64,000 bases of DNA, taken from assembly GCA_942491805.1 (NCBI GenBank), contig CALOCG010000022.1:60240-124239 (forward strand). Direction: 5' to 3'. The position numbers were made by a program, and so were the translations under genes. This DNA is from Nitrospinota bacterium (GTDB lineage: Bacteria > Nitrospinota_A > UBA7883 > JADGGD01). Positions 14,185 to 53,889 of this stretch are shown here, in pieces; position 1 is the first letter of the stretch; every line of letters begins with the position of its first letter. The notes below the pieces were generated by a model that did no database searches, was not told the DNA's origin, and saw nothing but the letters and a program-made list of their open reading frames with translations.

Positions 14185-15203
14185 AGGTCCACTTCCTTAT
14201 CAATATCTGGGAGAGATAGTTGATCACGAAGGTAAAGAGGATCAACAGGAAGCCGAGGAAGAAAAGGACCGAATAGTGGGTCCAGCCGATGACCACCTCG
14301 GCCATCTCGGCGCCGATGGTGGCGGCGAAGGTCCGGGCGCCGCTGGTCAGACGGGCGTCGAGCACCGCCGCATTGCCGGAACACATCAGCACGATCATCG
14401 TCTCGCCGAAACAGCGGCCGAAGCCCAACAGGGCGGCGGCGAAAACCTTGCCGTAGGTGGCGGGGATAATCACCCGACCGATGACCTGATAGTCGTACAT
14501 CCCCACCGATTTGGCGGCGAGAATCTGGTCTTTCGAGTAGGAGGAGTAGATATCTTCGAAGAGGGTGGTCATGATCGGAATGACGATGAGCGACAAAACC
14601 GTCCCGGCCAGAGAAGGCGATGAGCCGATAGGTGCAGCCGAAGATCTCCTCAAAATAGGTAGCGAAGAGCATCAGCCCCAAGCCCAGCACCGCCGATGGT
14701 ATCCCGGCCAGCAGTTCGGCGATCACCTTCACGGCATAGCGAACGCGCCGGGGCAGATAAAAGGCGATGGCGATGGCGGTGAAAAAGGAAAGGACCACCC
14801 CTTCGGCCACGGCGACCATGGTGATCTTGAACGTCCCGGCCACCAACGGCCAAAGAGAGTAGGTCGCCTGATCGCTGACCGGTTGCCAGACCGTCTGTCC
14901 GAACATATTGTCGAGGGTCTGGAAGATCGACGCGTCCCGGTCGAATTCCTCTTCGTTTTCGGTGTCGTGGTAGAGGGACATCTCGTTCCGCTGGTCGACG
15001 TCGGTGAAGATCGGCAGCGACTCTTTGGCGACGAAGAGGAATATCGCCAAGACCATCACCACCGCCAAGGCGCCGCCGAGGAACAACACCGTGACGGCGA
15101 TGTTCTGCTCTCTTCGGCGTCGGGTCATCCAACCGGCCCGGTCGGGGCCGGGATTCTCCACGATCTCGGTGGCCGTTTCCGGCGCCGGTGTCGCCTCACC
15201 CAC
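14177..15203 (-). CDS. pstC: Phosphate ABC transporter permease PstC, interrupted by a one-base frameshift
   Basis: The N-terminal part (track ORF 14076..15203, up to ...LMLFATYFEEIFG) and the C-terminal part (ORF 14177..14653, AAPIGSSPSLAGTV...GETMIVLMCSGN) are both PstC-like but in different frames. The junction is at about 14640-14670. Confidence 0.8.
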
Positions 15204-15336
15204 CGACCGACACGGCCATCGGCCGCCCTCCCCTCCAGCGTCGTCTCCGCATGAAACCTCTCACTTTCTTGTTTTCTCTCATTATTCGTCGTACCATCGG
15301 TGCGCTTGCCCCACGACCCGGAGAGAGAGACCGTTC

Positions 15337-17034
15337 ATGGACATTTCGATCATTCTCGACATGGCCTTCCATGTCATCGGCGGATTGGGGATATTCCTCC
15401 TCGGGATGAAATATCTCTCCGAAGGGATTCAGGCGGTCGCCAGCCATCAGCTCCGTTCGCTCATCGGCTCCGTCACCAACAACCGCTTCGTTGCGGTGAC
15501 CGTCGGTCTTCTTTTCACCTGCATGGTGCAATCGTCGTCGATCACCACGGTCATGGTGGTCGGGCTGGTCAACAGCAGCGTCATGACCCTTGGTCAAGCC
15601 ATCGGCGTCATCATGGGCGCCAACATCGGCACCACCATCACCGGCTGGATTCTGGTCATCAAAATCGGCAAATACGGCCTCCCGATACTGGGAGGGGCGG
15701 CTCTCTTCCATCTGTTCGCCAAGAACGAACGGCTCCGCTTCATCGCCATGGTCGTCATGGGGGTCGGCATGGTCTTCTTCGGTCTCGAACTGATGAAAAA
15801 CGGCTTCAAGCCGATCCGTTCCATCCCCGAGTTCGCCCAGATGTTCGCCTACTTCCAAGCCGATAGCTATTTTGGCGTTCTGAAAGCCGCCGCCGTCGGA
15901 TGCGCGCTGACCTTCATCGTCCAATCGTCGTCGGCCACGCTGGCGATCACCATCGGGCTCGCCTCCACCGGAAGCATCGACTTCCCCACGGCGGCGGCTT
16001 TGGTGTTGGGCGAAAACATCGGCACCACCATCACCGCCTACCTCGCTTCGCTGGGCGCCACGCTGAACGCCCGTCGGGCCGCCTACGCCCATATCGTCTT
16101 CAACATGCTGGGGGTCTTCTGGATCACCTCCCTCTTCCCGATCTACCTCGAACTGGTGAAGGGGTTTTTGGATGTCGATCCCGGCGTGATGAAACTGGAC
16201 GGCGCCGGCATGGAGACGTTCCCTTATGTGGTCATGGGAATCGCCACGGTCCACAGCGGATTCAACGTGGCCAACACCCTCCTTTTCCTCCCCTTCATTC
16301 GGGTGTTGGAGCGAGGGCTGGTCCGCCTTTTCCCCGACCGGGGGGAAGAACGACCGATGCGGATGACAACCCTCGACGAGAATTTGCTGGAGACGCCGTT
16401 GGTGGCGCTGGAGACGATCCGTTCCGAGATCGGCCGGATGGGAGAAATCGTGCGGGAGATGATGGACCAGCTCGGCGAAGCGGCGTCGCAAGAGAAAATC
16501 GACCGGAAACTGGCCGACAAGCTTTTCCATCGGGAAGAGGTGCTCGATCAGGTCAAAAGCGAGATCACCGTCTTCATCACCGACCTGCTGGCCGCCGGGC
16601 TCCCCCACCAGATCACCGACGAGGGGCGACGCCAACTGGAAATCGTCGACGAACACGAATCGATCAGCGACTACGCCGTCCGGGCGCTCAAGCTCCACCT
16701 CCGTCTCCGCAACGACGGGGGCGCCCTCATCCCCGAAGACCGGGAGGGCCTGGGGGGCCTGCACGGCAGGGTGACCGACTACATCAGCCTCGTCACCACC
16801 TCCTTCGCCACCGGGGAGAACAAGATCCTCTTCAAGGCCCAACCCCAGTCGGAGGCCATCAACCACGAGATCCGGCGCTTGCGGGCGGCCCACGCCACCC
16901 ATATGGCCGCCGACAAACGGGATCCGGCGGTGACCATGATCTATTCCGATCTCCTTAACGACTACCGCCGGATGAAAGACCACGCCCTCTCCATCGCCCG
17001 CGATCTCGACGGTCGTCCCACCCTTCATCGCTAA
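15337..17034 (+). CDS. Na+/phosphate symporter, NptA/YjbB family, with a C-terminal PhoU-like domain
   Basis: Start MDISIILDMAFHVIGGLGIFLLGMKYLSEG with a GGAGAG RBS. Two Na_Pi_cotrans repeats (QSSS motifs) and a cytoplasmic helical tail. The track ORF 15004.. is over-extended at the 5' end. Confidence 0.85.
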   Translation: MDISIILDMAFHVIGGLGIFLLGMKYLSEGIQAVASHQLRSLIGSVTNNRFVAVTVGLLFTCMVQSSSITTVMVVGLVNSSVMTLGQAIGVIMGANIGTTITGWILVIKIGKYGLPILGGAALFHLFAKNERLRFIAMVVMGVGMVFFGLELMKNGFKPIRSIPEFAQMFAYFQADSYFGVLKAAAVGCALTFIVQSSSATLAITIGLASTGSIDFPTAAALVLGENIGTTITAYLASLGATLNARRAAYAHIVFNMLGVFWITSLFPIYLELVKGFLDVDPGVMKLDGAGMETFPYVVMGIATVHSGFNVANTLLFLPFIRVLERGLVRLFPDRGEERPMRMTTLDENLLETPLVALETIRSEIGRMGEIVREMMDQLGEAASQEKIDRKLADKLFHREEVLDQVKSEITVFITDLLAAGLPHQITDEGRRQLEIVDEHESISDYAVRALKLHLRLRNDGGALIPEDREGLGGLHGRVTDYISLVTTSFATGENKILFKAQPQSEAINHEIRRLRAAHATHMAADKRDPAVTMIYSDLLNDYRRMKDHALSIARDLDGRPTLHR

Positions 17035-17039
17035 CCGGT

Positions 17040-18778
17040 TCACGTCGTCGCCTCCCCCGCCGGGATCACCAGCGTGAAGACACTCCCCTCGCCGGGGATC
17101 GACTGAACCGTCACCCGCCCGCCGTGGGCCAGCGCCACGTTTTTCACGATGGAGAGGCCGAGCCCGGTCCCCCCTCGCGCCCGACTTCGGGCGGCGTCGA
17201 TTCGGTAGAACCGTTCGAATAGCCGGTCGATATGGGCTTTGTCGATGCCGACCCCATGATCCCGCACCGAAAGGTACAAGGTCTTCCCGGTCAGGGTGGC
17301 GGCCACATCGACGGCGCTCCCTTCCTCGGAGTGGACGATGGCGTTGTCGACGAGGTTCGTGACGGCCCGCTCCATCAGGGGGGAGTTGAGCCGCGCCACA
17401 AGGGTCTCGGCGCAATCGACATTGATCGTCACCTTCCGTTCGGTCGCTTTCGCGGTCAGGTCGGCGACCACTTCGGCGATGATCGGGGCCACCGCCTGTT
17501 CGGTCAGAGCCGCCTCCTCCCCTTCGCCGATCCGGTCGAGCCGGGCCAAGGAGAGGAGGTCTTCCACGATGGCGGCCAGCCGGTCGATCTGGCGTTGCGC
17601 CACGCCGAGGAACCGATGGGTCTGCTCCGGGTCGGAGAGATCGTCCTCCTGCAAGGTCTCCACATAACCCCGAATGGAAGTGATGGGGGTCCGCAATTCG
17701 TGGGAGACGTTGGCGGCGAAGTCGCGGCGTAAGTTTTCGAGCCGTCTTAGATCGGTGACGTCGCTGATGGTGGCCACGACGCCGCCGAAGACCCCTTGTC
17801 GAGGATGAGGGGGGTGATCACCAGTTGCAGGTTACGGGGCGTCGCCCCATGTTCGTAGATCACCTCCCGCTCCAGCGACGAGGGGGAGGATAAGGCATCG
17901 GTCAGGAATCGGAGAAGGTCGCCGTTGGGGAGGATATCGGTCAACGGGGTCGACGGGGCGACGTCGGTTCTGATGGAGAGGATGCGGCGCAAGGCCGGGT
18001 TGATCCGAATGACGCAGCCGTCGGCGTCGACGGCGATGACCCCCTCTTTCATCGAAGCCAAAATCGCCACGGCGCCCCGGTCGGTCTCGTCGGCGTCCGA
18101 GAGACGGTCGGCCAAGGCGGCGCCCATGCGGTTGAGCGATGCGGCGGCGTTGGCGAATTCGTCGATGGCGCCGCCGTAGACTTTCTGGTCGAACCGGGCC
18201 AAGGCGAACCGGGCCGCCCCTTGGTTCAACCGGTCGAGCCCGTCGATAACCACGGCACGGGTCCGCCACGCCACAAGCGCCCCCCCCCCCGCCGCCAGCG
18301 ACAGGAGGATCCCCCAGAAGAAAAAGCCGCCGAAGGCCCCCTCGGGGTTAACCCTTGAAAGAGCCACAGCGCCGATAACGCGCCCTTCGGAGACGATGGG
18401 CAAGGCGATGGCGAGCCGGTCATCCTCGCGCCAGACCGGGGCGCCCGCCAAAGCCGATTCGATCTCTTTTTCCGCAAGACCGACATCACCGGCGGCGCAC
18501 AGCCTGGCGCCGTCGGCGGCGACGATGGAGACGCCGAGAAATCCGTGGGTGACCACCCGACCGCAGACGGCGCCGAGCGACCGGGGGTGGCGGTCGATGA
18601 TCGGATCGACGGCCAGTTCCCGCAACAGATCCCCCTCCTGACGCAGGGCGTGGCGGGCCTCCTTGCGCAAGTTCCGGTTGGCCTGCTCGGAAAGGGGCAT
18701 GACCATCACCCCCAACGAAAAAGCCATCAACCCGAAAAGGAGGGGGAAGAGGCGTCCGAAGAGGGTCTGGCCGGACAT
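17040..18778 (-). CDS. phoR: Phosphate regulon sensor histidine kinase PhoR-like (TM, PAS, HisKA, HATPase), interrupted by a frameshift
   Basis: Sensor plus PAS in ORF 17747..18778. HisKA/HATPase (SHELRTP, GGTGLGL) in ORF 17040..17777. Adding one C to the CCCC run at 17792-17795 would restore ...LILDKGVFGGVVATISDVTDLRRLE... Confidence 0.85.
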
Positions 18779-29254: not shown

Positions 29255-29875
29255 TCAGGAAGAAGGGCCGCCTTCGTGGCCGCTCATCCCGGCCATGACG
29301 ACATACCGCATGGCGTCTTCCACCGACATCGACAACGGCGTCACTTTCTCTCTCGGCATCATGATCGTATAGCCGCCGATCTGATACGAGAAGGGGATGT
29401 AGACCGCCACCATCCCGTCGAACGGTTCTAATCCTTTCACGTCGCCAAACGACTGGCGGGTGACGAAACCGATGAGGTGATAGTCGGCGGCGAAAGTGAC
29501 CCGGACCACCAGATCGAGCTGTTGCGACCGGGTACCGGCCACGAAACTCATCATGTCTTTCAGTCCGGCGAAGAGCGATTTCACGAACGGAATCCGCCCG
29601 ACGATCCGCTCCATCCATTCGGTAAGGCGACGCATGACCCAGAGATTCATCACCAGCCCGAGGAGGAAAACCAACACCACCCCCGCGGCGATCCCCATGC
29701 CGGGCCAGTAATAGGCCGGCGCCGGGAGAACCATCCGTATCAGCTCCCCCAACCGGCTCTCGGCCCAGACGCTCATCCAGACCACCACCGAAATGGTCAG
29801 CCCCAACGGCAACGCCGTCAGCAACCCGTTGGCGAAAGCGCGCAATAACGGTCTTCGTATCCCTTCTTTCGACAT
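29255..29875 (-). CDS. DUF502-family membrane protein
   Basis: Two N-terminal TM helices and a conserved cytoplasmic domain. 206 aa. Confidence 0.6.
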   Translation of the reverse strand: MSKEGIRRPLLRAFANGLLTALPLGLTISVVVWMSVWAESRLGELIRMVLPAPAYYWPGMGIAAGVVLVFLLGLVMNLWVMRRLTEWMERIVGRIPFVKSLFAGLKDMMSFVAGTRSQQLDLVVRVTFAADYHLIGFVTRQSFGDVKGLEPFDGMVAVYIPFSYQIGGYTIMMPREKVTPLSMSVEDAMRYVVMAGMSGHEGGPSS

Positions 29876-29977
29876 CGGGTCGATCCTTTCGCTATGAATG
29901 AGTCATGGTACCAGACCCCATCCATCTGACGGACAATCACCTTCTCCCAAAAGCTCTCCCTTAAAACCGTTCCCTTT

Positions 29978-29986
29978 TGCTACAAT
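29978..29986 (+). promoter_or_regulatory. Extended -10 promoter candidate upstream of the stressosome operon
   Basis: TGcTACAAT about 125 nt before the rsbR ATG. No convincing -35. Confidence 0.25.
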
Positions 29987-30109
29987 ATCGCAAGGGTCAA
30001 AAAAGGGGAGGGCTTCATGTACCCAAAAATTCCCTTGTGACCCGTTCCAATTATCCGTGCATCTCCGTCCCGATTCCGGGAGGGTCGACACATCGAAAGG
30101 AGGGGGTTT

Positions 30110-31018
30110 ATGTCTGTCGTAACCGTAGAGGATTGGGAACAGCGAAAAAGGTTCATCGGTTTCGGCGACGACGACATCGCCATTCTCAAAGCGCTCTCTC
30201 CCACCATCGAGAAACAGGTCGATGCGATGGTCGAAGAGCTCTACGACCATTTTCTCTCGTTTCCTCATCTCAGGAAATTCCTGCGGGACGAGGAGGTCGT
30301 CAACCGGCTGAAGATCACTCAGCGGGCCTATTTCCTCGACCTGTTCAAGGGGGAGTATAGCGGCGCCTATCTCGACGGGCGGCTGAAAGTCGGCCGGGTT
30401 CACCAACGGATCGGTCTCGATATCCAGTGGTACATGGGCGCCTTCGTGGTCTACGTCAGCATCATCGCCCCCCGGATCGCCAAACATTATAAGGACGACG
30501 CCAAAAAAATCGCCACGGCGATGATGGCCCTTTACCGGCTCATCAATCTCGACGAAGAATTGGCCATCGACACCTACATCGCCGCCCGCGAAGAGGTGAT
30601 CGCCGAACAGGCCGAAGAGATCATGGAGCTCTCCACCCCGGTGGTGCAGGTCTGGGACGGGGTCGTGGCGGCGCCGATCATCGGCACCCTCGACTCGCAA
30701 CGGACCCAGCTTTTCATGGAGCGGCTGCTCGAGACCATCGTCGAGACCAAGTCGCCGGTGGCTCTCGTCGACATCACCGGTGTCCCGGCCATCGACACCG
30801 CCACGGCGCAACATCTGATCGACACCATCAACGCGGTCAAACTCCTCGGCGCGCAGGTGGTCATCACCGGCGTATCCCCGATCATCGCCCAGACGCTGGT
30901 CCATCTCGGCATCGACCTTTCCGGCATCATCACCCGCTCCAGCCTGGCTCAGGGAATCGCCGTGGCGCTGGAGATTCTCAACCTTCAGATCGTCCCCAAA
31001 GGTAAGGGGGCGAACTGA
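30110..31018 (+). CDS. rsbR: RsbR-like stressosome sensor: N-terminal globin-coupled-sensor domain plus C-terminal STAS domain
   Basis: Sensor-globin block RLKVGRVHQRIGLDIQWYMGAF (proximal-His region). C-terminal STAS (VALVDITGVPAIDTATAQHLI). First gene of a tightly overlapping five-gene operon. Confidence 0.75.
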   Translation: MSVVTVEDWEQRKRFIGFGDDDIAILKALSPTIEKQVDAMVEELYDHFLSFPHLRKFLRDEEVVNRLKITQRAYFLDLFKGEYSGAYLDGRLKVGRVHQRIGLDIQWYMGAFVVYVSIIAPRIAKHYKDDAKKIATAMMALYRLINLDEELAIDTYIAAREEVIAEQAEEIMELSTPVVQVWDGVVAAPIIGTLDSQRTQLFMERLLETIVETKSPVALVDITGVPAIDTATAQHLIDTINAVKLLGAQVVITGVSPIIAQTLVHLGIDLSGIITRSSLAQGIAVALEILNLQIVPKGKGAN

Positions 31019-31377
31019 TGGGCGGCGAAAACATCTCGGTCATCCTGCTTCGGAACATCCTGATGGTCAACGTTCCGCCCGACCCGGACGACGACTCGAT
31101 TCAGGCGTTGCAAGAGAAGGTCTTAAAAGCGATGGAGCGGACCCGCGCCGAAGGGGTGGTGCTCGACATCTCCACCGTCGATATTCTCGACTCCTTCTTC
31201 GCCCGGACCCTCATCGACACGGTCCAAATGATTTCGCTCATGGGGGGGCGGACGGTCATCGCCGGCATGATGCCCTCCGTCGCCATCACCGCCACCCAAC
31301 TGGGGCTCACCTTCGAGAACATCGCCACCGCCCTTGACGTCGATACGGCGCTCGATATGCTTCGGGAAAAGCGGTGA
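31018..31377 (+). CDS. rsbS: RsbS-like STAS-domain protein (stressosome scaffold / antagonist)
   Basis: 119 aa single STAS domain. 1-nt overlap with rsbR. Confidence 0.75.
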   Translation: MGGENISVILLRNILMVNVPPDPDDDSIQALQEKVLKAMERTRAEGVVLDISTVDILDSFFARTLIDTVQMISLMGGRTVIAGMMPSVAITATQLGLTFENIATALDVDTALDMLREKR

Positions 31378-31383
31378 TCGACC

Positions 31384-31791
31384 ATGTCTAACGGGAAACG
31401 TTGGTCTGTCCCCATACGGCAAGAGAGCGACATCGTCCGCGCTCGAACCGTCGGGAGAGAAGCGGCCAAAGCCCTAGGCTTCGGTCTGACCGACATTACC
31501 CGCATCGTCACCGCCGCCTCCGAACTGGCCCGGAACATCTATCGCTACGCCGACGAGGGGGAAATGTCGGCCGAAGAGGTCACCCGCGACGGCAAGAGCG
31601 GCATCGAGCTGGTCTTCGCCGACAAAGGCCCCGGCATCCCCGACGTCGAACTGGCCCTGAGCGAAGGCTACTCCTCCAGCAAAACCATGGGGATGGGACT
31701 CCCCGGCGCGAAAAAGCTGATGGACGAAATGACGATCGAATCGACCGAAGGGATCGGCGCCACGGTGACGATCATCAAGTGGAAACGATAA
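31384..31791 (+). CDS. rsbT: RsbT-like serine kinase (GHKL / HATPase_c_2 anti-sigma-factor-type kinase)
   Basis: 135 aa. N box ELARNIYRYA. G boxes DKGPGI and MGMGLPGAKKLMDE. Confidence 0.75.
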   Translation: MSNGKRWSVPIRQESDIVRARTVGREAAKALGFGLTDITRIVTAASELARNIYRYADEGEMSAEEVTRDGKSGIELVFADKGPGIPDVELALSEGYSSSKTMGMGLPGAKKLMDEMTIESTEGIGATVTIIKWKR

Positions 31792-31794
31792 CGG

Positions 31795-32820
31795 ATGAAC
31801 GAAGGGGAGAAGGCCAACCACTTCGTCTCGGGCCCCGGCGACGTCACCTCCGTCCGAAGGAAAGCCCGCCGTCTGGCCGACGAGATCGGGTTCCCCGAGC
31901 CGGAAGCCGAGTCGATCGCTCTGGTCGTCACCGAACTTGCCACCAACATCGTCAAATACGCCGGTTCCGGCGTCGTCGCCTTGGCCCACAGTCGCGTCGA
32001 AGGGCGCGAAGGGATCACCGTAGAGGCCCGTGATCGCGGCCCCGGTTTCTCCGACGACGAACAGGTGATGGTCGACGGCTACTCCACCTCCGGCACCTTG
32101 GGACACGGGCTCGGCGCCGTCAACCGGATGATGGACGAGGTCGATATCCTCTCCGACGGCGAGCGGGGAACCCAGATCGTCGCCACCCGTTTCTTGCGCA
32201 CCCCGGCCAGCCGCGCCGCCTCCCTCGCCACTTCCCCGTTCGACATCGGCGCCGTCAGTCGTCCCCATCCGAAAATGACCGTCAACGGCGACACCTTCGT
32301 CATCCGCCACTGGAACGGCCATTCGCTGGTGGCGGTCATCGACGGGGTCGGCCACGGCCAATACGCGCAACGGGCTTCGCAAGCGGCCCGCTCCTACATC
32401 GAATCCCACTACGACCAGCCGCTCGACATGATCTTCAAAGGGGCGGCCAGAGCCTGTCGCGGATCGCGGGGGGTGGTCATGGCCATCGCCGTTTTCCGGT
32501 GGAGCGACGGTGAGATCAAATTCGCCTCCATCGGCAATATCGAAACCCGCCTCTTCGGGGTGAACAAGACCGACAAGTTCCATCTGCGGCGCGGGATCGT
32601 CGGCTTGCAGATGCCGACCCCCCACGTGGTCACCGACCTCTGGGCCCCCGGCGCCACGTTGGTCCTCTTCTCCGACGGGATCAGCTCCCGCTGGTCGCAG
32701 GCCGACCTCGGGGTCGATCGGGACTCTCCCTCCGCCCGGTTGGCCCACCGCATCCTGATGGATCATGTGAAAGAAAACGACGACGCCACGGTGGCGGTGG
32801 TGAAGGATCGGCGACCATGA
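31795..32820 (+). CDS. Fusion of a GHKL switch-kinase-like domain and a PP2C (SpoIIE-type) phosphatase
   Basis: The N-terminus is a second RsbT-like HATPase (ELATNIVKYA, DRGPGF, LGHGLGAVNRMMDE). The C-terminus is PP2C-like (VIDGVGHG...FSDGI...). Confidence 0.7.
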   Translation: MNEGEKANHFVSGPGDVTSVRRKARRLADEIGFPEPEAESIALVVTELATNIVKYAGSGVVALAHSRVEGREGITVEARDRGPGFSDDEQVMVDGYSTSGTLGHGLGAVNRMMDEVDILSDGERGTQIVATRFLRTPASRAASLATSPFDIGAVSRPHPKMTVNGDTFVIRHWNGHSLVAVIDGVGHGQYAQRASQAARSYIESHYDQPLDMIFKGAARACRGSRGVVMAIAVFRWSDGEIKFASIGNIETRLFGVNKTDKFHLRRGIVGLQMPTPHVVTDLWAPGATLVLFSDGISSRWSQADLGVDRDSPSARLAHRILMDHVKENDDATVAVVKDRRP

Positions 32821-34988
32821 CCGAGATGGGGCCGACCGACGACACCGAAACCTTGCGGGCCTATATCGCCAGTCTCGAAGCCGAACTGTCCGATACCAAC
32901 GAAGGACTCGTCGCCCTCACCCTCGAACTCGAGGACGCCAAGGAACAATACCGGAGCGTCATCGACAATTCGGTGGAGGGGATCTATCGGACCGACCGCG
33001 ACGGCAAGGTCGTCATGGCCAACCCGGCGTTGGCCCAACTGTTCGGCTACGAAACGGTCGACCGTCTGCTGGAAGACGAGCTTCGCATCGGCGACCGGTT
33101 TCTCGATCCGGCCCGGTGGAACGGATTGATCGAAGAGCTGGCCGACACCGGTCGGGTTCTCGGGGCGGTCATCCCCCTTACCGGCGCCGAGGGTCAAACC
33201 CGGGTCGTCTCCCACAACGTCCGGGCTCTCACCGACAACCGCGGCGCTCTCATCGGCATGGATGCGGTGGTCATCGACATTACCGAACGGCAGCTTCTGG
33301 AAGAACGGCTCAGCCTGATCGCCAAGGTCTTCGAATATTCGGTGGAGGGGATCGTCATCACCGACGCCGACACGACCATCCTCGAGGTCAACCGGGCCTT
33401 CTCCACCATCACCGGCTATCGGACCGACGAAGCGGTGGGACATAAAACCGACCTCCTCTATTCCGGCTGGCAAGACAGCGACTTCTACAAGCACATGTGG
33501 GAGAAACTCGAAACGGACGGGGTCTGGATCGGCGAGATCCGCGACCGGCGCAAGAACGGCGAGTTCTACGTCCAACACCTGACCATCTGCGCCATCGCCG
33601 GGGTTGACGGCGCCCCGGCCCACTACATCGGCATTTTCACCGACATCACCGAAAAAAAACTGAACGAAAAAAAGGTCCGGCAGCTCGCTTACTACGACCT
33701 GCTGACGCGGCTCCCCAACCGGACGTTGCTGATGGAACGGCTCTCCCACGGCATCCGCACCGCCGAACGGGAGAACTACCTGTTGGCGATCCTCTTCATC
33801 GACCTGGACAATTTCAAAAACATAAACGACATGCGGGGGCATCACGCCGGAGACAAGTTCCTGCAACAGGTGGCCGACCGGTTCACCGCCTGCGTCCGGG
33901 GCGCCGACACGGTGGCGCGGTTGGGGGGAGACGAGTTCGTCATCTTGTTAGAGGACATCAAAGATCCGCAGAACGCTTCGTCGGTGGCCAAACAGGTAAT
34001 CGACGAAATGAGGCGCGGTTTCAATCTGGGCGAAGGGGACGAAGTCTTCTCCGGCGCGTCGATCGGCATCGCCATCTACCCGTCCGACGGAGAAAACGCC
34101 GATACGATCCTCAAACACGCCGACACCGCCATGTACACCGCCAAAGAACAGGGGAAAAACGACTATCACTTCTTCCGCGAAGAGATGAACGTCAAAGCGA
34201 TGGAACGGCTCCGCCTAGAGACCGATCTCCGCCGCGCCCTGGAGAATGACGACTTCGTTCTCTTCTACCAACCGAAAGTCGATCTGGCCAGCGGGCGGAT
34301 CCACGGCGCCGAAGCCCTCATCCGATGGCGCCACCCGGAACTGGGGCTGGTCCTCCCCGACCGGTTCATCCCGTTGGCCGAGAAGAGCCCCCTTATCGAA
34401 TCGATCGGGGAATGGGTCATCCGCTCCGCCTTCGCTACCGGCGCCTCGTGGCGGGAGCGCGGGGTCAACCTCTCGTTCCTCTCGGTCAACGTATCGGCCC
34501 GCCAACTCGGCAGTCGCGGGTTTCTTGCCACGATCGAAAAAACCATCGCCGACACCGGCGCCATCCCGACCGATTTCGAACTGGAACTGACCGAGTCGGC
34601 GGTGATGTCCGACGCCGAAAGCTCCATCGAAAAACTGCGCGCCCTGCGCGACATGGGGTTCCGCATCGCCCTCGACGATTTCGGCACCGGCTACTCGTCG
34701 CTGAACTATCTCAAACGGCTCCCCATCGGCGCGGTCAAAATCGACCGCTCCTTCGTGCGGGACATCATGTTCGACGAGAGCGGACGAGCCATCGTCCGGG
34801 CGATCATCGCCTTGTCCCACAAGATGAACCTCGAGGTGATCGCCGAAGGGGTAGAGAAAGAGGACGAGCGAGAGTTTCTCGTGGAACAAGGATGCGATTT
34901 CGGGCAAGGTTACCTTTTCCACAAACCGATGGAAGAACCACATTTGATGGCCCTGCTCGGAAAAGCCCCCTCCCGCCGGGGACGGTAA
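32817..34988 (+). CDS. PAS/PAC-GGDEF-EAL c-di-GMP turnover protein
   Basis: Two PAS/PAC regions. Intact RLGGDEF and EALIRW motifs. ATGA overlap with the upstream gene. Confidence 0.9.
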   Translation: MTEMGPTDDTETLRAYIASLEAELSDTNEGLVALTLELEDAKEQYRSVIDNSVEGIYRTDRDGKVVMANPALAQLFGYETVDRLLEDELRIGDRFLDPARWNGLIEELADTGRVLGAVIPLTGAEGQTRVVSHNVRALTDNRGALIGMDAVVIDITERQLLEERLSLIAKVFEYSVEGIVITDADTTILEVNRAFSTITGYRTDEAVGHKTDLLYSGWQDSDFYKHMWEKLETDGVWIGEIRDRRKNGEFYVQHLTICAIAGVDGAPAHYIGIFTDITEKKLNEKKVRQLAYYDLLTRLPNRTLLMERLSHGIRTAERENYLLAILFIDLDNFKNINDMRGHHAGDKFLQQVADRFTACVRGADTVARLGGDEFVILLEDIKDPQNASSVAKQVIDEMRRGFNLGEGDEVFSGASIGIAIYPSDGENADTILKHADTAMYTAKEQGKNDYHFFREEMNVKAMERLRLETDLRRALENDDFVLFYQPKVDLASGRIHGAEALIRWRHPELGLVLPDRFIPLAEKSPLIESIGEWVIRSAFATGASWRERGVNLSFLSVNVSARQLGSRGFLATIEKTIADTGAIPTDFELELTESAVMSDAESSIEKLRALRDMGFRIALDDFGTGYSSLNYLKRLPIGAVKIDRSFVRDIMFDESGRAIVRAIIALSHKMNLEVIAEGVEKEDEREFLVEQGCDFGQGYLFHKPMEEPHLMALLGKAPSRRGR

Positions 34989-35052: not shown

Positions 35053-35493
35053 ATGAAACCCCTTTCCGTCGCCGCCGCACCGCTCCTTGCCCTCGCTCTC
35101 GCCGCCACCGCCCACGCCCGAAGCGACACCGTCGATTACAAAGTGGCCGACGCCGCCGCGACCGCCAAAGGGAAAGAGGCGTTGCTCGATGTCCCCTACT
35201 ATATGAAGGGACAAAAACATCCGGCCGTGGCCAAAAGCATGGGAACCGACCGGAGCAACCGGAAGACCAACGCTTTTAATAAAAGCGACGAGTTCGCCTG
35301 CCAAGTGGCGTTCCTGTCCGCCCTGAAAGCGCTTCAGCAAAAAGCGGTGCAGATGGGCGCCGATGGGGTGATCGACATCTACTCCACGACGAAAGGGAAC
35401 AAGCTGGAAAGCGCCGACTCGTTCCGTTGCGTGGTCGGGACGATCATCTCCCACGTCGGCCTGAACGGCGAATATGTGACGTTCAAAAAATAA
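35053..35493 (+). CDS. Small secreted protein of unknown function (tandem paralog A)
   Basis: Signal peptide. Conserved core SDEFACQVAFLSALKALQQKAVQMGADGVIDI...FRCVVGT shared with the next gene. Confidence 0.6.
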   Translation: MKPLSVAAAPLLALALAATAHARSDTVDYKVADAAATAKGKEALLDVPYYMKGQKHPAVAKSMGTDRSNRKTNAFNKSDEFACQVAFLSALKALQQKAVQMGADGVIDIYSTTKGNKLESADSFRCVVGTIISHVGLNGEYVTFKK

Positions 35494-35514: not shown

Positions 35515-35949
35515 ATGAAACTTCTCATCGCGTCGTCGCTTCTGCTTCTCTTCGTTGCCACCGACGCTTGGGCGAGGGCCGACCGGGTCGACTACCCGGT
35601 GGCCGGGGCCTTGGCGACCGATCTGGCCAAAGAAGCCCTCCACAATCTTCCGTTCGCCTTCACCGGGGCGAGTCACTCATTGGTGGAGCGGAATATCGCC
35701 ACCGGTTTTAATGACCGGACCACCCGCTCGATATTCCGAAGCGACGAATACGCCTGTCAGGTGGCCTTTCTTTCGGCGCTGAAAGGGTTGCAAGAACGAG
35801 CGGTCCAAATGGGCGCCGACGGCGTCGTCAACATCCGCTCCACCACCCGGGGGGAGACGTTTCGGAGCAGAGACCGGTTTCAATGCGTCGTCGGCTACCT
35901 ATTGGCCAACGTCAGCCTGACCGGCGATTTCGTATCGTTCGCCCGATAG
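35515..35949 (+). CDS. Small secreted protein of unknown function (tandem paralog B)
   Basis: Signal peptide. SDEYACQVAFLSALKGLQERAVQMGADGVVNI...FQCVVGY. Same length and layout as paralog A. Confidence 0.6.
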   Translation: MKLLIASSLLLLFVATDAWARADRVDYPVAGALATDLAKEALHNLPFAFTGASHSLVERNIATGFNDRTTRSIFRSDEYACQVAFLSALKGLQERAVQMGADGVVNIRSTTRGETFRSRDRFQCVVGYLLANVSLTGDFVSFAR

Positions 35950-36115
35950 GCGAGCGCCTATTCTTTGCCTTACCTCGATCACAAAGAGACCGCCTCCGTT
36001 GTCGGCTCGTTCTCGACCGGTCAAGCGGGCTTGCGCCAAAGGAGGAAGATATCAAAGAGGGTATTGTCGATGGAGGCGATAATTGCGGAATTGACGGAGC
36101 ATATATTTTCGAAAG

Positions 36116-36167: not shown

Positions 36168-39100
36168 CTACGCCACCGCCAATGGGGTTTGGCGTTCGTC
36201 GGACAGTTCGACCGCCAGGACTTTCGAGACCCCTTCTTCCTCCTGCGTCACCCCATAGAGCCGTTCGGCGAAGCTCATGGTCTTCTGGCTGTGGGTGATG
36301 ATGATGAACTGGGTCCGCTCGGTCATCTCGATGACCATGTCGCGGAACCGGAAGATGTTCGCCTCGTCCAGCGGGGCGTCAACCTCGTCCAAGAGACAGA
36401 ACGGCGACGGCTGCTTCATGAAGACGGCGAACAGGAGCGAGATTGCGGTCATCGCTTTCTCCCCTGCCGAGAGCAGGTTGAGGTGCTGCACCTTTTTTCC
36501 CGGCGGTTGAACCAGAATTTCGACCCCCGGCTCGCTCTTCCCCTCTTCTTCCACCAGCCGCATCTCGGCGTTGCCGCCGCCGAAGAGTCGTTTGAAGACC
36601 GAGGTGAAGTTGGCCGAGACTTCGGCGAAGGTCTCCATAAAGAGTTTCTCGGTAGCGCCGTTGAGGCTGTCGATGGTCTTCCGCTAGGTGGCGATCGACG
36701 AGACCAGATCGGTGTGTTGCGTTTTCATGAACTCGTACCGCCCATTGATCTCCTCGAACTCCTCCAACGCCGTCATGTTGACGTCGCCGATGCGGGAGAT
36801 TTCCCCCCGGAGGAACGAGAGCCGTCGTCCGGTCTCTTCCAGGTCGACTTCCGAGAGGTCGCGGTCTTTCAGATCTTCGACGGGAATGTTGAACTCGTGA
36901 TCGGCTTTCTCGACGATGTTCTCCACCCGCAAAGTCAGTTCGTTGGCTTTCACCGCCTCTTCGGCGATGGCGGCCCGCAACGTCTCCAGCTCTTGAGCCA
37001 GTTCCCGTCCCTCCTGTTCCAGCCGATCCCGCTCGCCGATCTCTTCGGTCAGGGCCTCGGTCATTCGGGTCACTTCCTCTTGCAGGGCCGACTGCCGTTT
37101 GGCGAGTTCGACGTTCTCCCCTCGCATCTCTTCGATGGAACGCTCCATCTCTTCCTTGCGACGGGCGTTTTCCCCCCGTGACGCGACGAGCCGTTCGACC
37201 CGCGCCGTCAGGTCGGCGGTGACGCTTTCGATCCTCTGGATATCGACCTTGGCGGCGGTCAGGCGACCACGGGTTTCGGTAAGGGCGATCTCCTCTTCCC
37301 GGACTCTGCCGGTGACACTCTCCAGCGAGCGGCGATACTCTTCTATCTCGGCGGACGCGCTCTCCACTTGGCCGTCCCGCTCGTTCTTTTCGGTCTCGAC
37401 CGTGGCGACCGCTTCGGCCAAGGTTTTCTCTTCATCGACCAGTTTGGCCCGGTCGGTGTCGAGTTGTTCGGCCTCCCGGTCGAGCGACTCGACCCCTCGT
37501 TGCGACCGTTCCAGGTCGGCCCGGCGCCCCTGCTCTTCCTTACCGGCGGAGAGAGCCGCCATGTCGAAGCTTCGCAACCGTTCGGCGGAGGCGGTCACCT
37601 CTTGTTTGGCCTTCTCGACGGCGGCGACCCCTTCCTCTTTGACCGTGGCCGCGTCAGAGCGGCGCCCCTCCAACCCGGCCAGTTCGCCGGTCAGCTCTTC
37701 GATGATCCGTTTCCGGGCGACGATAGCGGCGCCTTGTCCCGCCGGTTTGCCGCCGCCGGTGACGAACCCGTCGGCGTCGATCAGATCGCCGTCGAGGGTG
37801 ACGACCCCGTAAGCGCCGGGGTGTTGCCGCCAGATCTCCATGCCGTCGGCCAGGTCTTTGGCGACGAAGATCGACGCCAAGGCCCGACGAGCCGCTTGGG
37901 GGGCGGCGTCGGTGAAGGTGACCAGGTCGGACGCCCGTCCCACCAACGAGGGGTGATCGGGGGTCGGGGTGTCGGCGGCGGTCTCGACCATGTCTCCCGC
38001 CAACAAGATCGCCCGCCCGACGGCGCCTTCGCGCAACAGGCGGACCGCTTCGGCGACGCTGGCTTCGTCGGTCAGCATGGCCGCTTCGAGCCGTTCCCCC
38101 AAGGCGGCGGCCAACGCGGTCTCGAACGCGGGGGCGATCCTCAGACCGTCGGCCAAGAGGCCCGACGGTTTTTGGATGGTCCCGTCGTTGGCCAGTTTCA
38201 TAAGCCCTTTGACCCCTTCGCCGAACCCTTCCATGTTCCGCTCCAACTCTTCTAACGAGTCGAGCCGGGAGCGGACGCGGGTGATCTGGTCTTCCACATC
38301 GCGCAACGAAGCCGACGCCTGATCGAGCCGGGCCGTGGCGGCGGAAAGCTCTTCGGTCAGACGTTGATGGGTCTCCCGCTCGGTAGCGGCGTTGGCTTGG
38401 GCGGCGGCCAGCTCTTCGGTGATCCGGGCCACCGATTCGGTGAAGGCGCCCACCTGTTGAGCCGCTTCTTCGCGACGGGCGGTCAAGCCGGAGAGCCGGT
38501 TGTCGGCCATCTCGATCCGGGTGGTCAACTGCCCTTGCCGGTTCTTCGCCTCCGACAGTCGGCGCATCAGATCCATGTTCTCCCGCTGGAGCCGAGCCAG
38601 TTCGTCCTGTTTTCCGGCCAGCCGTTGGCGGACGTTTTTGCTCTCTTCGTCGAGATCCTCTTTCCGGGCCACGGCGACGGCGATCTCTCGATCGAGCTGG
38701 GCCACTTCGGCCAGACGTCCTTCACGGTCGCCGCCGATGCGGACTTTCTCTTCTTCCAACCGGGCGATATCGACTTCGGCCTCTTCTCGGATACGCCCCA
38801 GGTCGCTCAACTGACGGGTCAGCAACTCGATGTGGCTCTCGTTTTTCTCGATGGCGCTGGTGAGCTGGTATCGCTCCTCTTTCTTTTCACCCAAGGCCCG
38901 TTCTTCCACACCGATCCGCCCCGACAGGTTTTCGATCCGGTTCCGGCGGGTCGAGACTTCGGCGGAGACGATGGTCTCTTTCTCGCGGGCGGCCGAAAGG
39001 GTCGCCTCCATGCCGGTCAGTTTGACCTTCTGCATCTGATACTCATTGGCGTACCAGTCGTGGGCTTTCTCCCGGATCTCGGTGCGGAATCCCATGAACC

Positions 39101-39752
39101 GCTCCGCCTTTTTGGCCTGCCGCGACAAGGAGTTCCGTTGCCGTTCCAGCTCGCCGAGGAGGTCTTGGATACGGAGAAGGTTCTGCTGCGCGGCGGCCAA
39201 TTTGTTGAGCGCCGCGTTCCGGCGGGCTTTGTATTTCATGACGCCTGCCGCCTCTTCGATGAGACCGCGACGATCTTCGGGACGGGAGTTGACGATGGCG
39301 GTCACCTGCCCCTGCTCGATGATCGAGAGCGACCGGGTGGAGATGCCGGTGTCGAGAAAAAGGTCGACGATGTCTTTGAGGCGACAGGGGACTTTATTGA
39401 TGTAGTACTCCGACTCGCCGGAGCGGTAGAGCTTCCGGGTGACGGTGACTTCCGGGTATTCGGCGAACGGCATGGTGGTGATTTTGCCGTCGTCGTTGAC
39501 CATAGTGACGGAGACTTCCGCGAAGCCCGCTTGCTTTCTTCTGCCGGAGCCGTTGAAAATAAAGTCTTCCATCTTGCCGCCACGCATATGCTTGGCCGAC
39601 TGTTCGCCCAAGACCCATCGGATGGCGTCGGCGATGTTCGACTTGCCGCAGCCGTTGGGCCCGACGATGGCGGTGATCCCCGGTTCGAACCTGAGGGCGG
39701 TTTCGTCGACGAACGACTTGAAGCCGCGCATTTCAATTCCTTTGAAATACAT
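36168..39752 (-). CDS. smc: Chromosome partition protein SMC, containing an in-frame TAG at 36684-36686
   Basis: N-terminal Walker A (GPNGCGKSNI), long coiled coils, hinge, then ...DLVSSIAT-TAG-RKTIDSLNGATEKLFMETFAEV...LSAGEKAMTAISLLFAV...LDEVDAPLDE. The ABC signature and Walker B lie after the stop. Confidence 0.9.
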
Positions 39753-47410: not shown

Positions 47411-48682
47411 TTAAGCCGACTTCCGGTTGGCCCGGAAAATACCTTGGATAAGCCGTTTCGCCCCCGCCGGTTCCAGATCTTCGGGAACACGTTGGCCGGT
47501 GGTGTAGTACGACACCGGCAATCCGGTGCGGGCGCTCTGGTTGAAGACCGGCCCCAACCGGGGGGCTTCGTCCAGTTTCGTATAGAGCAGAGCCGACACC
47601 CCCAGCGGAGCGAAGTTTTTGATGGTCTCTTCCATCTGCTCTTCACTCGACGCCGCAGAGAGGCACAACTGCACCTCCATGCGCGGGGCTTTATCGATAA
47701 ACTTTTTCAGCTCGCCGATCTGGCTCGTGTCCCGTTGGGAACGTCCCGCCGTGTCGACCAGAATCACGTCGCAATCGGCGTGGCGATGAATCGCCCGGGC
47801 CAGATCCATCGGTTGCACCGCGACTTCCAGCGGGATGTCGAGAATCTTGGCGTAAATTTTTAGTTGTTCCACCGCCGCGATACGGTAGGTGTCGATGGTG
47901 ACCAGCGCCACCTTTTTCCCCGCCATGGTCAGTTGGGCCGCCAGCTTCGCCACCGTCGTCGTCTTGCCGACGCCGGTCGGGCCGGTCAACGCCACCACGC
48001 GGGTCGCTTCCTCGTCGCCTGCCAACGTCGGCGTAAAGTCGCCGCCGAAGGTCAGGGTTCCTTTCATCCGGGAAGCGGTCACCGAGACCAGCGTCTTCAG
48101 GTCGGGCGCCGGTGCGTGAGGCCCGCTTTTTTCGATCAGCTCGTCGACGAGGGTGTCGATATATTCGGCCGCCACTCCACGATCTTTCATCAACCGCGCC
48201 AGCGAGAGGAACGAACGGGGCATCCCTTTTTCTTTTTCGATCCCCGCCTGATCGATCAGGTAGGCCATCATCGATTTCAGTTCCCGCACCTCGTCGGCCA
48301 CCGCTTCGGCGCCCTTCGGCTCGACGGAAGCCGACGAAAGTTCGCGCAACGCCACCTTCAGTTCGTCAATCCCGTCCATCAGCGGGTTCATGAGAGCGAC
48401 TGCGTCGCCCAACGCCCGATCGGGACGGGAGGAGAACCCCGCTCCGACCGACGCAGGAGCGGTGGCCGCCGGAGCGAGACGACGGGGGCGGGGGGTCGGT
48501 CGGGCCGCTTCGGCGCCGACGGCGGCGGTCACTTCCATCATCGGTCGACCGAAGACCCCAAACGATCCGGCGCCCCGGTTCACCTTCCGGGAAGAAAGGA
48601 TCACCGCGTCGGGTCCCAGGTCTTCTTTAATGAGGCGGAGCGCCTCATTCATGTCGACCGCTTCGTACCGCTTTACTTTCAT
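47411..48682 (-). CDS. flhF: Flagellar biosynthesis GTPase FlhF
   Basis: SRP-type GTPase (GPTGVGKTTT, DTAGR). Confidence 0.9.
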   Translation of the reverse strand: MKVKRYEAVDMNEALRLIKEDLGPDAVILSSRKVNRGAGSFGVFGRPMMEVTAAVGAEAARPTPRPRRLAPAATAPASVGAGFSSRPDRALGDAVALMNPLMDGIDELKVALRELSSASVEPKGAEAVADEVRELKSMMAYLIDQAGIEKEKGMPRSFLSLARLMKDRGVAAEYIDTLVDELIEKSGPHAPAPDLKTLVSVTASRMKGTLTFGGDFTPTLAGDEEATRVVALTGPTGVGKTTTVAKLAAQLTMAGKKVALVTIDTYRIAAVEQLKIYAKILDIPLEVAVQPMDLARAIHRHADCDVILVDTAGRSQRDTSQIGELKKFIDKAPRMEVQLCLSAASSEEQMEETIKNFAPLGVSALLYTKLDEAPRLGPVFNQSARTGLPVSYYTTGQRVPEDLEPAGAKRLIQGIFRANRKSA

Positions 48683-52028: not shown

Positions 52029-52042
52029 TCGCTCATCCCTTC

Positions 52043-52825: not shown

Positions 52826-52834
52826 ACGGGGCCT

Positions 52835-53107
52835 TTACCGGATGTACTGGGGGATGTTGATGATGATGTTGGCGGTATAGTCGACCATCATCTGGATCAT
52901 CCAGGGGAAGAAGATCACCATCGAAACCATGACGGCGAGGATCTTGGGAATGAAGGTAAGGGTCATCTCTTGAATGGAGGTGACCGCTTGGAAAATCGAA
53001 ACCGTCACGCCGATAATCAGCCCGAACCCGAGCATCGGCGCGGCGATCAAGAGAGCCATTTGCAGGCTCTGGGCCGAGATGGAAACGACGAATTCGGGGG
53101 TGACCAT
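52835..53107 (-). CDS. fliQ: Flagellar export protein FliQ
   Basis: 90 aa, two TM helices, FliQ motif. Confidence 0.9.
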   Translation of the reverse strand: MVTPEFVVSISAQSLQMALLIAAPMLGFGLIIGVTVSIFQAVTSIQEMTLTFIPKILAVMVSMVIFFPWMIQMMVDYTANIIINIPQYIR

Positions 53108-53116
53108 AAAACGCTC

Positions 53117-53884: not shown

Positions 53885-53889
53885 CTCCT

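Follow-up and report, generated by a model that had tools for sequence, protein, structure and literature searches.

We analyzed a five-gene operon (positions 30110-34988) in a 64-kb stretch of DNA, hereafter the window, from a Nitrospinota bacterium (assembly GCA_942491805.1, contig CALOCG010000022.1). With a probability of roughly 0.7, this operon specifies a stressosome of the RsbR-RsbS-RsbT type that senses gas through heme and whose dedicated output would be the PAS-PAS-GGDEF-EAL protein encoded by the fifth gene. Functional statements on this locus are inferences from its sequence and from relatives of its products. A preliminary description of the same DNA had named a globin-coupled sensor fused to STAS (RsbR), a STAS protein (RsbS), an RsbT-type GHKL kinase, a kinase-PP2C fusion and a PAS-PAS-GGDEF-EAL protein with both catalytic motifs intact. 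Domain calls were made with Pfam, with all matches beyond the curated cut-offs; every domain named in that description was recovered (Table 1), and the five assignments were borne out by the residues and structural matches given below.

The open reading frame (ORF) list contains five + strand ORFs with nearly no spacing between them. The RsbR and RsbS genes overlap by 1 nt and genes 4 and 5 by 4 nt (ATGA), while gaps of 6 and 3 nt separate RsbS from RsbT and RsbT from gene 4, respectively. Hence, the tightly packed five-gene operon described before stands, but the overlaps of 1-4 nt attributed to it occur at only two of the four junctions. A strong Shine-Dalgarno sequence of consensus type, AGGAGG, is located at 30098-30103, 6 nt upstream of the first ATG (that of RsbR). 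A scan for sigma-70 consensus promoters found no site upstream of the operon, and the - strand terminators reported by the same scan, which are inside coding sequence, were disregarded. The G+C content of the operon equals that of its flanks, and scans of the whole window for Rfam families and tRNAs gave no matches. Neither RsbV, RsbW nor a second STAS or PP2C gene was detected elsewhere within the 64 kb, which agrees, over that distance, with the sigma-B-independent kind of stressosome proposed earlier.

Among solved structures, the top match of RsbR was the full-length RsbR of the Vibrio vulnificus stressosome (7O0I_B, E 8e-47, aa 6-294). Its globin domain also matched the heme sensors AfGcHK (5OHE, E 5e-17), GsGCS (2W31, E 1e-15) and HemAT (1OR4, E 2e-14). 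In these alignments, His98 corresponds to the proximal ligand F8 (His123 of HemAT, His99 of AfGcHK), Tyr45 to the distal B10 residue (Tyr70 and Tyr45, respectively) and Thr70 to the distal Thr95 of HemAT. Tyr45, His98, Asp195 and Thr230 were invariant in an alignment of 41 globin-RsbR sequences that took in proteins from Vibrio, Flammeovirga, Nitrospinota and KSB1. Ser196 and Thr230 align, via 7O0I_B, with Ser199 and Thr233 of V. vulnificus RsbR (VvRsbR), which have been equated with the two phospho-threonines of B. subtilis RsbR, Thr171 and Thr205 (PMC9237108). With an N-terminal sensor and, C-terminally, a STAS domain with both phospho-acceptor positions, RsbR fits the definition of a co-antagonist. 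By its resemblance to these proteins it is likely a heme-based gas sensor, with O2 as the most likely ligand. In V. brasiliensis, RsbR in the deoxy-Fe(II) form activates the RsbT step, while O2-bound RsbR suppresses it; the Fe(II)-O2 and Fe(III) forms give basal activity (PMC4976288).

RsbS consists of a single STAS domain (Pfam E 3.7e-12) with Ser59 in the motif ILDS59FF. Its top solved-structure matches were RsbS from Listeria and B. subtilis (E 2.5e-23), with the phospho-serine column conserved and an identity of 40-50% in the aligned region, as judged by eye. ILDSFF was aligned with the segment vdmidSfi of B. subtilis RsbS, where we take the corresponding column to be Ser59. RsbT matched HATPase_c_2 (E 2e-12), has SpoIIAB as its nearest solved relative, and contains the N (E47..N51), G1 (D80-G-P-G84) and G2 (G103-M-G-L-P-G108) boxes.

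The product of gene 4 joins a HATPase_c_2 domain and a SpoIIE domain in one 341-aa chain. The former is 30% identical to RsbT over 135 aa without gaps, with the N, G1 and G2 boxes at identical positions, from which we conclude that gene 4 encodes an RsbT paralog (T') joined to a phosphatase. The metal-binding motifs of the PP2C domain are NGD166, DGVGHG188, SDG295 and DDAT332. All ATP-binding, catalytic and metal-binding motifs of the fusion were invariant in 30 homologs, which suggests that T' is probably an active kinase in need of a substrate. In an AlphaFold2 (AF2) model of the fusion (pLDDT 88.6, pTM 0.87), T' superposed on SpoIIAB, whereas the PP2C domain superposed best on MtX (3ZT9; TM 0.92, root-mean-square deviation [rmsd] 1.7 A) and also on RsbX (3W40); the sequence match of the PP2C domain with MtX 3ZT9 had an E value of 3e-11. 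The linker between kinase and PP2C spans only about 20-30 residues, and there is no REC domain. Gene 4 fits an RsbX-type feedback phosphatase encoded together with RsbR, RsbS and RsbT, its extra kinase domain being outside the classical definition.

In the product of gene 5, the EAL catalytic set is complete (N558, E590/E593, DDFGTG 620-625, K641, E677 and Q697, besides EAL at 499-501), and the GGDEF domain has, together with GGDEF at 370-374, residues D329, D331, N337 and D338. Across 13 cassette-linked orthologs, the EAL residues and the I-site were invariant, whereas the first Gly of GGDEF was replaced (AGDEF/SGDEF) in several orthologs of the Methylococcaceae type, so that cyclase activity has not been kept throughout the family. 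Since EAL is invariant while GGDEF degenerates, the conserved catalytic output is probably hydrolysis of cyclic diguanylate (c-di-GMP) rather than balanced turnover; the protein of the window, with its intact GGDEF, may perform both synthesis and hydrolysis. No RsbU_N domain was found in gene 5 with Pfam, either in the full protein (E ≤ 0.01) or in residues 1-68 (E ≤ 1), for which reason docking of the Moorella or Bacillus type through RsbU_N was rejected. HisKA and REC domains were also absent from the Pfam matches of gene 5. As a separate observation, the loci L013, L016, L022, L024, L026 and L028 (not L030) from Methylococcaceae-type metagenome-assembled genomes (MAGs) combine a degenerate GGDEF with intact EAL residues.

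The preliminary description had made its reading depend on a proximal histidine with heme-pocket residues and on phosphorylatable positions in the STAS proteins. Both are present by alignment: His98, Tyr45 and Thr70 in the globin domain, and Ser59 of RsbS together with Ser196 and Thr230 of RsbR in the STAS domains. The string quoted as the proximal-His region, RIGLDIQWYMGAF, does not itself include His98, which sits two residues upstream of it (VH98QRIGLDIQWYMGAF). As for the proposal that a heme-sensed signal is converted into c-di-GMP turnover, the link to a c-di-GMP enzyme is supported, with hydrolysis likelier than turnover.

Distribution of the cassette and of its output motif

At least 738 relatives of the fusion were found at E ≤ 1e-5 in the protein collection, and the best 120 of them are all of about 330-350 aa and have the same two domains. 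A scan of one genome per species yielded 436 fusion-encoding loci, with about 51% as the highest identity to the fusion protein of the window. Gene models in these related loci are our own ORF or stop-to-stop calls, with phmmer seeds from the window proteins. In the best 80 of the 436 loci, the fusion is nearly always the fourth gene, after RsbR-, RsbS- and RsbT-like genes; these loci belong to Acidobacteriota, Chloroflexota, Verrucomicrobiota, Planctomycetota, Methylococcaceae, Nitrospinota, Myxococcota, Cyanobacteria, Asgard archaea, Methanotrichaceae and Haloarchaea. An identical five-gene arrangement was also observed in Mariprofundus aestuarium, in Methylococcaceae-type and KSB1 MAGs, and in the three closest relatives of the window RsbR, each with different flanking genes. 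Chance can be discounted, since unrelated genomes show the same order of the five genes. Judged from its proteins, the five-gene cassette (RsbR, RsbS, RsbT, T'-RsbX fusion and output) is a third, very widespread predicted stressosome architecture.

The concept of a globin stressosome acting on c-di-GMP is already known (PMC9237108; PMC4976288), whereas the architecture made up of fusion and output motif seems undescribed in the searchable literature. There, no description was found of a kinase-RsbX fusion or of a coiled-coil receiver in stressosome outputs, although an earlier mention is possible (surveys of Pane-Farre et al., 2005, 2017), and the supplements of PMC9237108 do not mention the fusion or motif features that were looked for.

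The kind of sensor and the kind of output are associated. Among scan loci with enough downstream sequence, the fifth gene encodes a GGDEF-EAL protein in 8 of 10 loci with a globin-type RsbR and in none of 60 loci with other RsbR types, 7 of these 60 being incomplete at the upstream end (Fisher p 5e-9). Several of the eight positive loci are from related Methylococcaceae, which reduces the number of independent lineages to about five. In M. aestuarium (CP018799.1), the globin-RsbR was called as two genes (L001 6326-6535 and 6647-7213), a 69-aa Protoglobin fragment and a 188-aa STAS protein; this split suggests a frameshift or a pseudogene in that strain.

The gene 5 protein begins with a coiled-coil motif (aa 13-45, LRAYIASLEAELSDTNEGLVALTLELEDAKEQY) that follows an a/d heptad from L13 to Y45. 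An alignment of 13 cassette-linked GGDEF-EAL proteins revealed an invariant pattern within the first 45 residues (L20, E23, L24, G30, L31, A33, E37 and E39 in window numbering), and the motif was retained in orthologs with one PAS domain or none (L082, L025). Over 72 loci, the consensus reads IxxLQxELaeTNrGlxALtxELE, also written IRxLQxELxETNRGLxALxxELE, with Glu10 conserved in 100%, Leu11 in 99%, Thr/Ser14 in 99% and Asn15 in 93%; position 14, which is Thr27 of the window protein, is Thr or Ser in 71 of the 72. As additional observations, the motif is duplicated in tandem (at about positions 20 and 56) in the Methylococcaceae-type loci L013, L016, L022, L024, L026, L028 and L030, and many matches from a library of 1.84 billion representative proteins contain 2-4 tandem copies. 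No Pfam or NCBIfam family covers the motif, and the motif strings had no match in the searchable literature.

A regular expression run against every ORF of 86 loci (both strands, minimum length 60 aa) gave 64 matches, all in the gene right after the fusion. With a profile built from these matches, the motif was detected at this place in 74 of the 77 species-representative loci for which at least 300 nt of downstream sequence were available, and elsewhere in 1.64 million six-frame residues the profile gave no match below E 0.1. Overall, 86 of 90 loci with the fusion have the motif in the next gene, versus one of five loci with a single-domain RsbX or none (p 1e-4). The latter are a small group: Vibrio sp. 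THAF191d, V. aquimaris, Listeria and a Streptomyces R-S-T locus without RsbX, in all of which the motif was not found, and Halanaeroarchaeum, where it is weak and internal. Phaeobacter has the fusion without the motif. Annotated loci outside the profile set that have both fusion and motif are those of Deinococcus radiodurans pMP1, Caballeronia, Variovorax, Streptomyces chartreusis, Embleya, Nonomuraea, Xanthomonas vasicola and Streptomyces NBC_01558.

A reverse test started from the motif. Its profile was searched against a collection of 5.8 billion proteins, where the matches were only gene calls of 52-80 aa, and the four motif-bearing gene calls retrieved in this way, without genomic context, were all located directly after an R-S-T-fusion array. 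Among the 1.84 billion representative proteins there were 641 matches at E ≤ 1e-3, and in the best 150 of them about 137 begin within the first 25 residues. Matches this few and this consistently N-terminal suggest that the motif is not merely a generic signalling helix.

The outputs that bear the motif are diverse. In a set of 54, HisKA was present in 37, GGDEF-EAL in 13 and also a receiver domain in 10, and in the shortest ones the motif and an ERT-type signalling helix alone precede a HisKA-HATPase_c core. The outputs of D. radiodurans and Caballeronia, and weakly that of Embleya, have a third RsbT-like domain joined immediately before the motif, a domain fusion that ties this kinase domain to the helix; adaptor domains resembling RsbT may commonly connect stressosomes with their outputs. 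For the N-terminus of the Vibrio output D1, hhalign gave no significant indication of a degenerate RsbT-like domain (probability 0.5%, E 0.13), and the N-terminus of V. aquimaris D1 (L102 6959-9697) had only a weak phmmer match with RsbT (E 9e-3). In Streptomyces sp. NBC_01558 (L107 7481-9229), the motif-bearing fifth gene itself encodes a SpoIIE/PP2C phosphatase, which implies that the cassette can feed a phosphatase, presumably in a partner-switching or sigma-factor route, besides kinases and c-di-GMP enzymes.

Proposed signal transmission and its alternatives

In the route that we propose, RsbR and RsbS would form a core complex holding the kinase RsbT, and the ligand or redox state of the RsbR heme would set the rate at which RsbT phosphorylates Ser196 and Thr230 of RsbR and Ser59 of RsbS. 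Phosphorylation would free an RsbT-family kinase domain from the core, and the freed domain would act on the helix at aa 13-45 of the gene 5 protein, changing its dimer state and thereby its phosphodiesterase, or possibly cyclase, activity. The fusion would finally reset the system, with its RsbX-type PP2C domain dephosphorylating the STAS proteins and T' either tethering this phosphatase to the core or supplying a second kinase activity. Control of RsbT by heme and O2 and the reset role of RsbX are supported by experiments on relatives and would apply here by analogy. The steps from the release of the kinase domain onwards, the identity of the domain that contacts the helix, and the role of this N-terminal helix as the site where the stressosome acts on its output are what we infer for the present system. 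As partner of the helix we favor RsbT, which would dock there once released, much as it acts on RsbU, because of the RsbX/MtX character of the phosphatase and the RsbT precedent: RsbT acts through RsbU's N-terminal domain along with a coiled-coil linker and dimerises the effector, and the same domain is found on the Moorella cyclase (PMC12143880).

Several observations weigh against this proposal. RsbU_N, which gene 5 lacks, is so far the sole known docking site of RsbT. The motif tracks the T'-PP2C fusion and not RsbT itself, since Vibrio has RsbT and neither fusion nor motif; as a partner of the helix, T' is thus no worse a fit than RsbT. When the distance matrices of 72 loci were compared by the mirror-tree approach, r was 0.596 for RsbT and 0.589 for T', with a bootstrap interval of the difference that spans 0. 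The enzyme could also receive separate inputs through its two PAS domains. As for the motif, it faintly resembles generic signalling-helix linkers (E 6e-8 for the linker between REC and HD-GYP in NosR, with weaker matches to NarQ and SiaA), and its hidden Markov model was built from loci first used to test it, so that independent support comes only from the other annotated loci, the reverse test and the search of representative proteins.

In the main alternative, gene 4 has a different role, and the fusion itself would be the transmitter: T' would bind the output helix or phosphorylate Thr27, PP2C would reverse this, and RsbT with the RsbR/RsbS core would set the dominant activity. Such a bifunctional switch would resemble SypE acting on SypA, or RsbW and RsbU in one chain, with heterodimerisation of RsbT and T' as one option. 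We regard this explanation as doubtful, although several points speak for it. Besides the distribution of the motif and the motif-less Vibrio loci with RsbT and a single-domain RsbX, it would give the probably active T' a place, and it would fit the nearly constant hydroxyl residue at motif position 14. That a kinase and a PP2C joined in one chain can share a substrate has a precedent in SypE (PMC10120452), and secondary sources mention RsbT-type phosphorylation of the Moorella cyclase (PMC4976288). On the other hand, the PP2C domain is nearest to MtX and RsbX, which are directed at STAS proteins, and the known substrates of this kinase family are STAS domains and not helices. The mirror-tree comparison shows no preference for T', the fusion-less sample comprises five loci only, two of them from Vibrio and one, Halanaeroarchaeum, with a weak internal motif, and Phaeobacter has a fusion without the motif.

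The assembly, which cannot be read from sequence, might also be simpler than a large pseudo-icosahedral stressosome of ~1.5-1.8 MDa that sequesters RsbT, that is, a small partner-switching module of STAS antagonist, kinase and phosphatase for which the name stressosome is a homology label. This is unlikely. There is a single RsbR at the locus, and none of the solved stressosomes has a phosphatase with an additional kinase domain; yet RsbR and RsbS are homologous over their full length to chains of the V. vulnificus, Listeria and Bacillus stressosomes solved by cryo-EM (E 8e-47 and 2.5e-23, respectively), and V. vulnificus, also with one RsbR, still forms the complex (PMC9237108).

It is quite improbable that the GGDEF-EAL gene is a mere neighbour, run by its own PAS domains, while the stressosome acts on some other, unlinked target. 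What speaks for it is that both PAS domains are intact and might bind ligands, that RsbU_N is absent, and that an interaction between RsbT and D1 was not detected in V. vulnificus (PMC9237108). Against this stand the 4-nt overlap with gene 4, the adjacency kept in at least five lineages with differing flanking genes, the retention of the cassette-specific motif in orthologs with one PAS domain or none, and the association of globin-type RsbR with a GGDEF-EAL fifth gene. A globin domain that does not bind heme and senses something other than gas, as in Bacillus RsbR, is hardly credible here, for although non-heme RsbR globins do exist (PMC8717448, PMC4976288), the heme residues missing in the Bacillus clade (PMC4976288) are represented in our RsbR by a proximal His and a distal Tyr invariant across 41 homologs, Vibrio among them, and its strong Protoglobin match (E 3.6e-44) is accompanied by the heme-binding AfGcHK, GsGCS and HemAT as nearest relatives.

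Returning to the proposed docking of a kinase domain on the output helix, a broader version of it is that the coiled coil of about 33 residues is a general receiver through which RsbT-family kinase domains switch histidine kinases, GGDEF-EAL proteins and PP2C phosphatases, i.e. a counterpart of RsbU_N in organisms without sigma-B. We put this forward tentatively, at somewhat less than even odds.

Neighbouring genes and feature coordinates

The coordinates of the operon, of its domains and of adjacent features are compiled in Table 1, together with the outputs of other loci that have an RsbT-like domain of their own.

Table 1. Features of the operon, its surroundings and selected outputs of related loci (positions refer to the window unless a locus is given).
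Feature	Position	Strand	Remarks
DUF502 membrane-protein gene	29255-29875	-	divergent from operon; DUF502 E 1.4e-23
Intergenic leader and promoter region	29876-30109	+	sequence read directly
RsbR	30110-31018	+	302 aa
RsbR, Protoglobin domain	30131-30592	+	aa 8-161; Pfam PF11563 E 3.6e-44, 154/158 profile positions
RsbR, STAS domain	30638-30916	+	aa 177-269; Pfam E 2.3e-13
RsbS	31018-31377	+	119 aa
RsbT	31384-31791	+	135 aa
Gene 4, kinase-PP2C fusion	31795-32820	+	341 aa
Gene 4, T' kinase domain	31831-32184	+	aa 13-130; HATPase_c_2 E 1.8e-14; N, G1, G2 boxes intact
Gene 4, RsbX/MtX-type PP2C domain	32242-32814	+	aa ~150-340; SpoIIE E 2.8e-6 (aa 175-300)
Gene 5, PAS-PAS-GGDEF-EAL enzyme (putative output)	32817-34988	+	723 aa
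Gene 5, coiled-coil motif	32853-32951	+	aa 13-45; conserved hydroxyl residue Thr27
Gene 5, PAS1	32964-33293	+	Pfam
Gene 5, PAS2	33345-33653	+	Pfam
Gene 5, GGDEF domain	33687-34160	+	Pfam E 9e-50; GGDEF aa 370-374; I-site R361xxD364
Gene 5, EAL domain	34224-34928	+	Pfam E 5.6e-76; EAL aa 499-501
Small secreted-looking protein, first paralog	35053-35493	+	~145 aa; paralogs 50% identical
Small secreted-looking protein, second paralog	35515-35949	+	~145 aa; paralogs 50% identical
Terminator-like hairpin	35936-35956	+	after tandem paralogs
Output with own N-terminal RsbT-like domain and motif, D. radiodurans pMP1	L089 10515-12245		HATPase_c_2
Output with own N-terminal RsbT-like domain and motif, Caballeronia	L094		HATPase_c_2
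Output with own N-terminal RsbT-like domain (weak) and motif, Embleya	L097		HATPase_c_2
Output with own N-terminal RsbT-like domain (HATPase_c_2), without motif, Phaeobacter	L090 10365-11522		

The tandem paralogs that follow the operon have signal-peptide-like N-termini and two conserved Cys, and are possibly co-transcribed with it. They matched no Pfam or NCBIfam family above threshold (only YbjQ_1 weakly, E 0.01-0.07) and do not follow the cassette in Mariprofundus or in the three closest relatives. Since they have neither a family nor conservation with the cassette, they were treated as outside the system.

Further downstream, an SMC gene (36168-39752, - strand) is interrupted by an in-frame TAG at 36684-36686 (...LVSSIAT*RKTIDSLNG...) into ORFs of 1022 and 156 aa in the same frame, which could be due to a sequencing error, a recent pseudogene or read-through. 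Flagellar export genes are located 12-20 kb downstream of the operon on the - strand (FlhF, 47411-48682; FlhA, 48752-50878; an ORF with a FliO domain, 53890-55263), and an MshE-type secretion ATPase with an MshEN domain, a c-di-GMP-binding module, is encoded 27 kb upstream (1050-2753, - strand). By proximity alone, the flagellar export genes and the ATPase are possible c-di-GMP targets. Two ORFs, at 15196-17415 (- strand, 739 aa) and 51947-54025 (+ strand, 692 aa), had no Pfam match at E ≤ 1e-5; since long ORFs of the other strand overlap with both, the two may be spurious shadows due to high GC.

Comparison with known systems and implications

Previous surveys of globin-RsbR loci reported c-di-GMP outputs in Vibrio, Chromobacterium and Herbaspirillum, and the V. 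vulnificus stressosome has been studied by cryo-EM and physiologically (PMC9237108; PMC10014275). The O2-sensing stressosomes of V. vulnificus and V. brasiliensis resemble that of the window in having, in identical order, a globin RsbR equipped with the proximal His and the distal Tyr, RsbS, RsbT and a PP2C of the RsbX type, no adjacent sigma factor, c-di-GMP degradation as predicted end point, and an RsbR with which the window protein aligns over its full length (cryo-EM chain 7O0I_B). In contrast to the 341-aa fusion of the window, RsbX in Vibrio is a single domain of 194 aa, and PP2C-only proteins of about 190 aa are present in Vibrio sp. THAF191d and V. aquimaris. The Vibrio output is also indirect, through a hybrid histidine kinase of 1057 aa (D1) followed by a REC-HD-GYP protein (D2), and lacks the coiled-coil motif, whereas in the window the c-di-GMP enzyme, a GGDEF-EAL protein, would itself be the direct, motif-bearing output.

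A direct connection of a stressosome with a c-di-GMP enzyme is known from Moorella thermoacetica, in which it controls the diguanylate cyclase MtG (Quin et al., 2012, as cited in PMC12143880 and PMC4976288), and the PP2C domain of the window fusion is structurally nearest to MtX of that system. According to these secondary accounts, however, MtG is a GAF-GGDEF protein that takes RsbT through an RsbU_N four-helix bundle, in place of which the window output has its coiled coil of about 33 residues, RsbR is described as other than a heme globin, and MtX as a single domain.

With the sigma-B stressosomes of B. subtilis and Listeria, the window system shares the STAS scaffold, the predicted action of RsbT on RsbS Ser59 and on two RsbR sites, and the reset by a PP2C phosphatase. 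The RsbR sensors of the former are non-heme, their output runs through RsbU, RsbV and RsbW to sigma-B, RsbX is a single-domain protein encoded at the operon end, and the Listeria locus is without the coiled-coil motif.

Two further proteins combine the activities of gene 4 in one chain. SypE of Vibrio fischeri, which acts on the STAS protein SypA, has likewise an N-terminal kinase and a C-terminal PP2C domain (PMC10120452). Its central REC domain, which decides the winning activity, has no equivalent in the window fusion, and SypE is not linked to RsbR-RsbS-RsbT; the fusion may work like SypE though it is not a member of the SypE family. Rv1364c of M. tuberculosis (PAS-PP2C-kinase-STAS), a structural match of the fusion (3KE6), also joins PP2C and an RsbW-like kinase, but in the opposite domain order, with sensor and STAS domains of its own, and outside R-S-T operons.

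A good understanding of stressosomes is confined to those that feed sigma-B. In the many Gram-negative and archaeal versions, most proteins downstream of RsbT lack a detectable RsbU_N domain, and the transmission step to them is unknown (PMC9237108). The locus described here offers a concrete candidate for this link, namely a short, strongly conserved helix at the N-terminus of the output and, occurring along with it, a kinase-phosphatase fusion. The system has few parts; its input, a heme gas sensor, is defined, and its output, hydrolysis or synthesis of c-di-GMP, is easy to measure. Cultured carriers of the cassette with other sensors and outputs include Deinococcus radiodurans pMP1, Xanthomonas vasicola, Phaeobacter inhibens, Variovorax and Streptomyces. 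Even if the idea of the helix were wrong, the locus would still be a clean O2-to-c-di-GMP pathway of a kind that has already been predicted. If the coiled coil is indeed a general receiver, this would answer the question left by the Vibrio work of how stressosomes without RsbU_N partners transmit their signal, and a portable coupling between sensor complex and effector could result.

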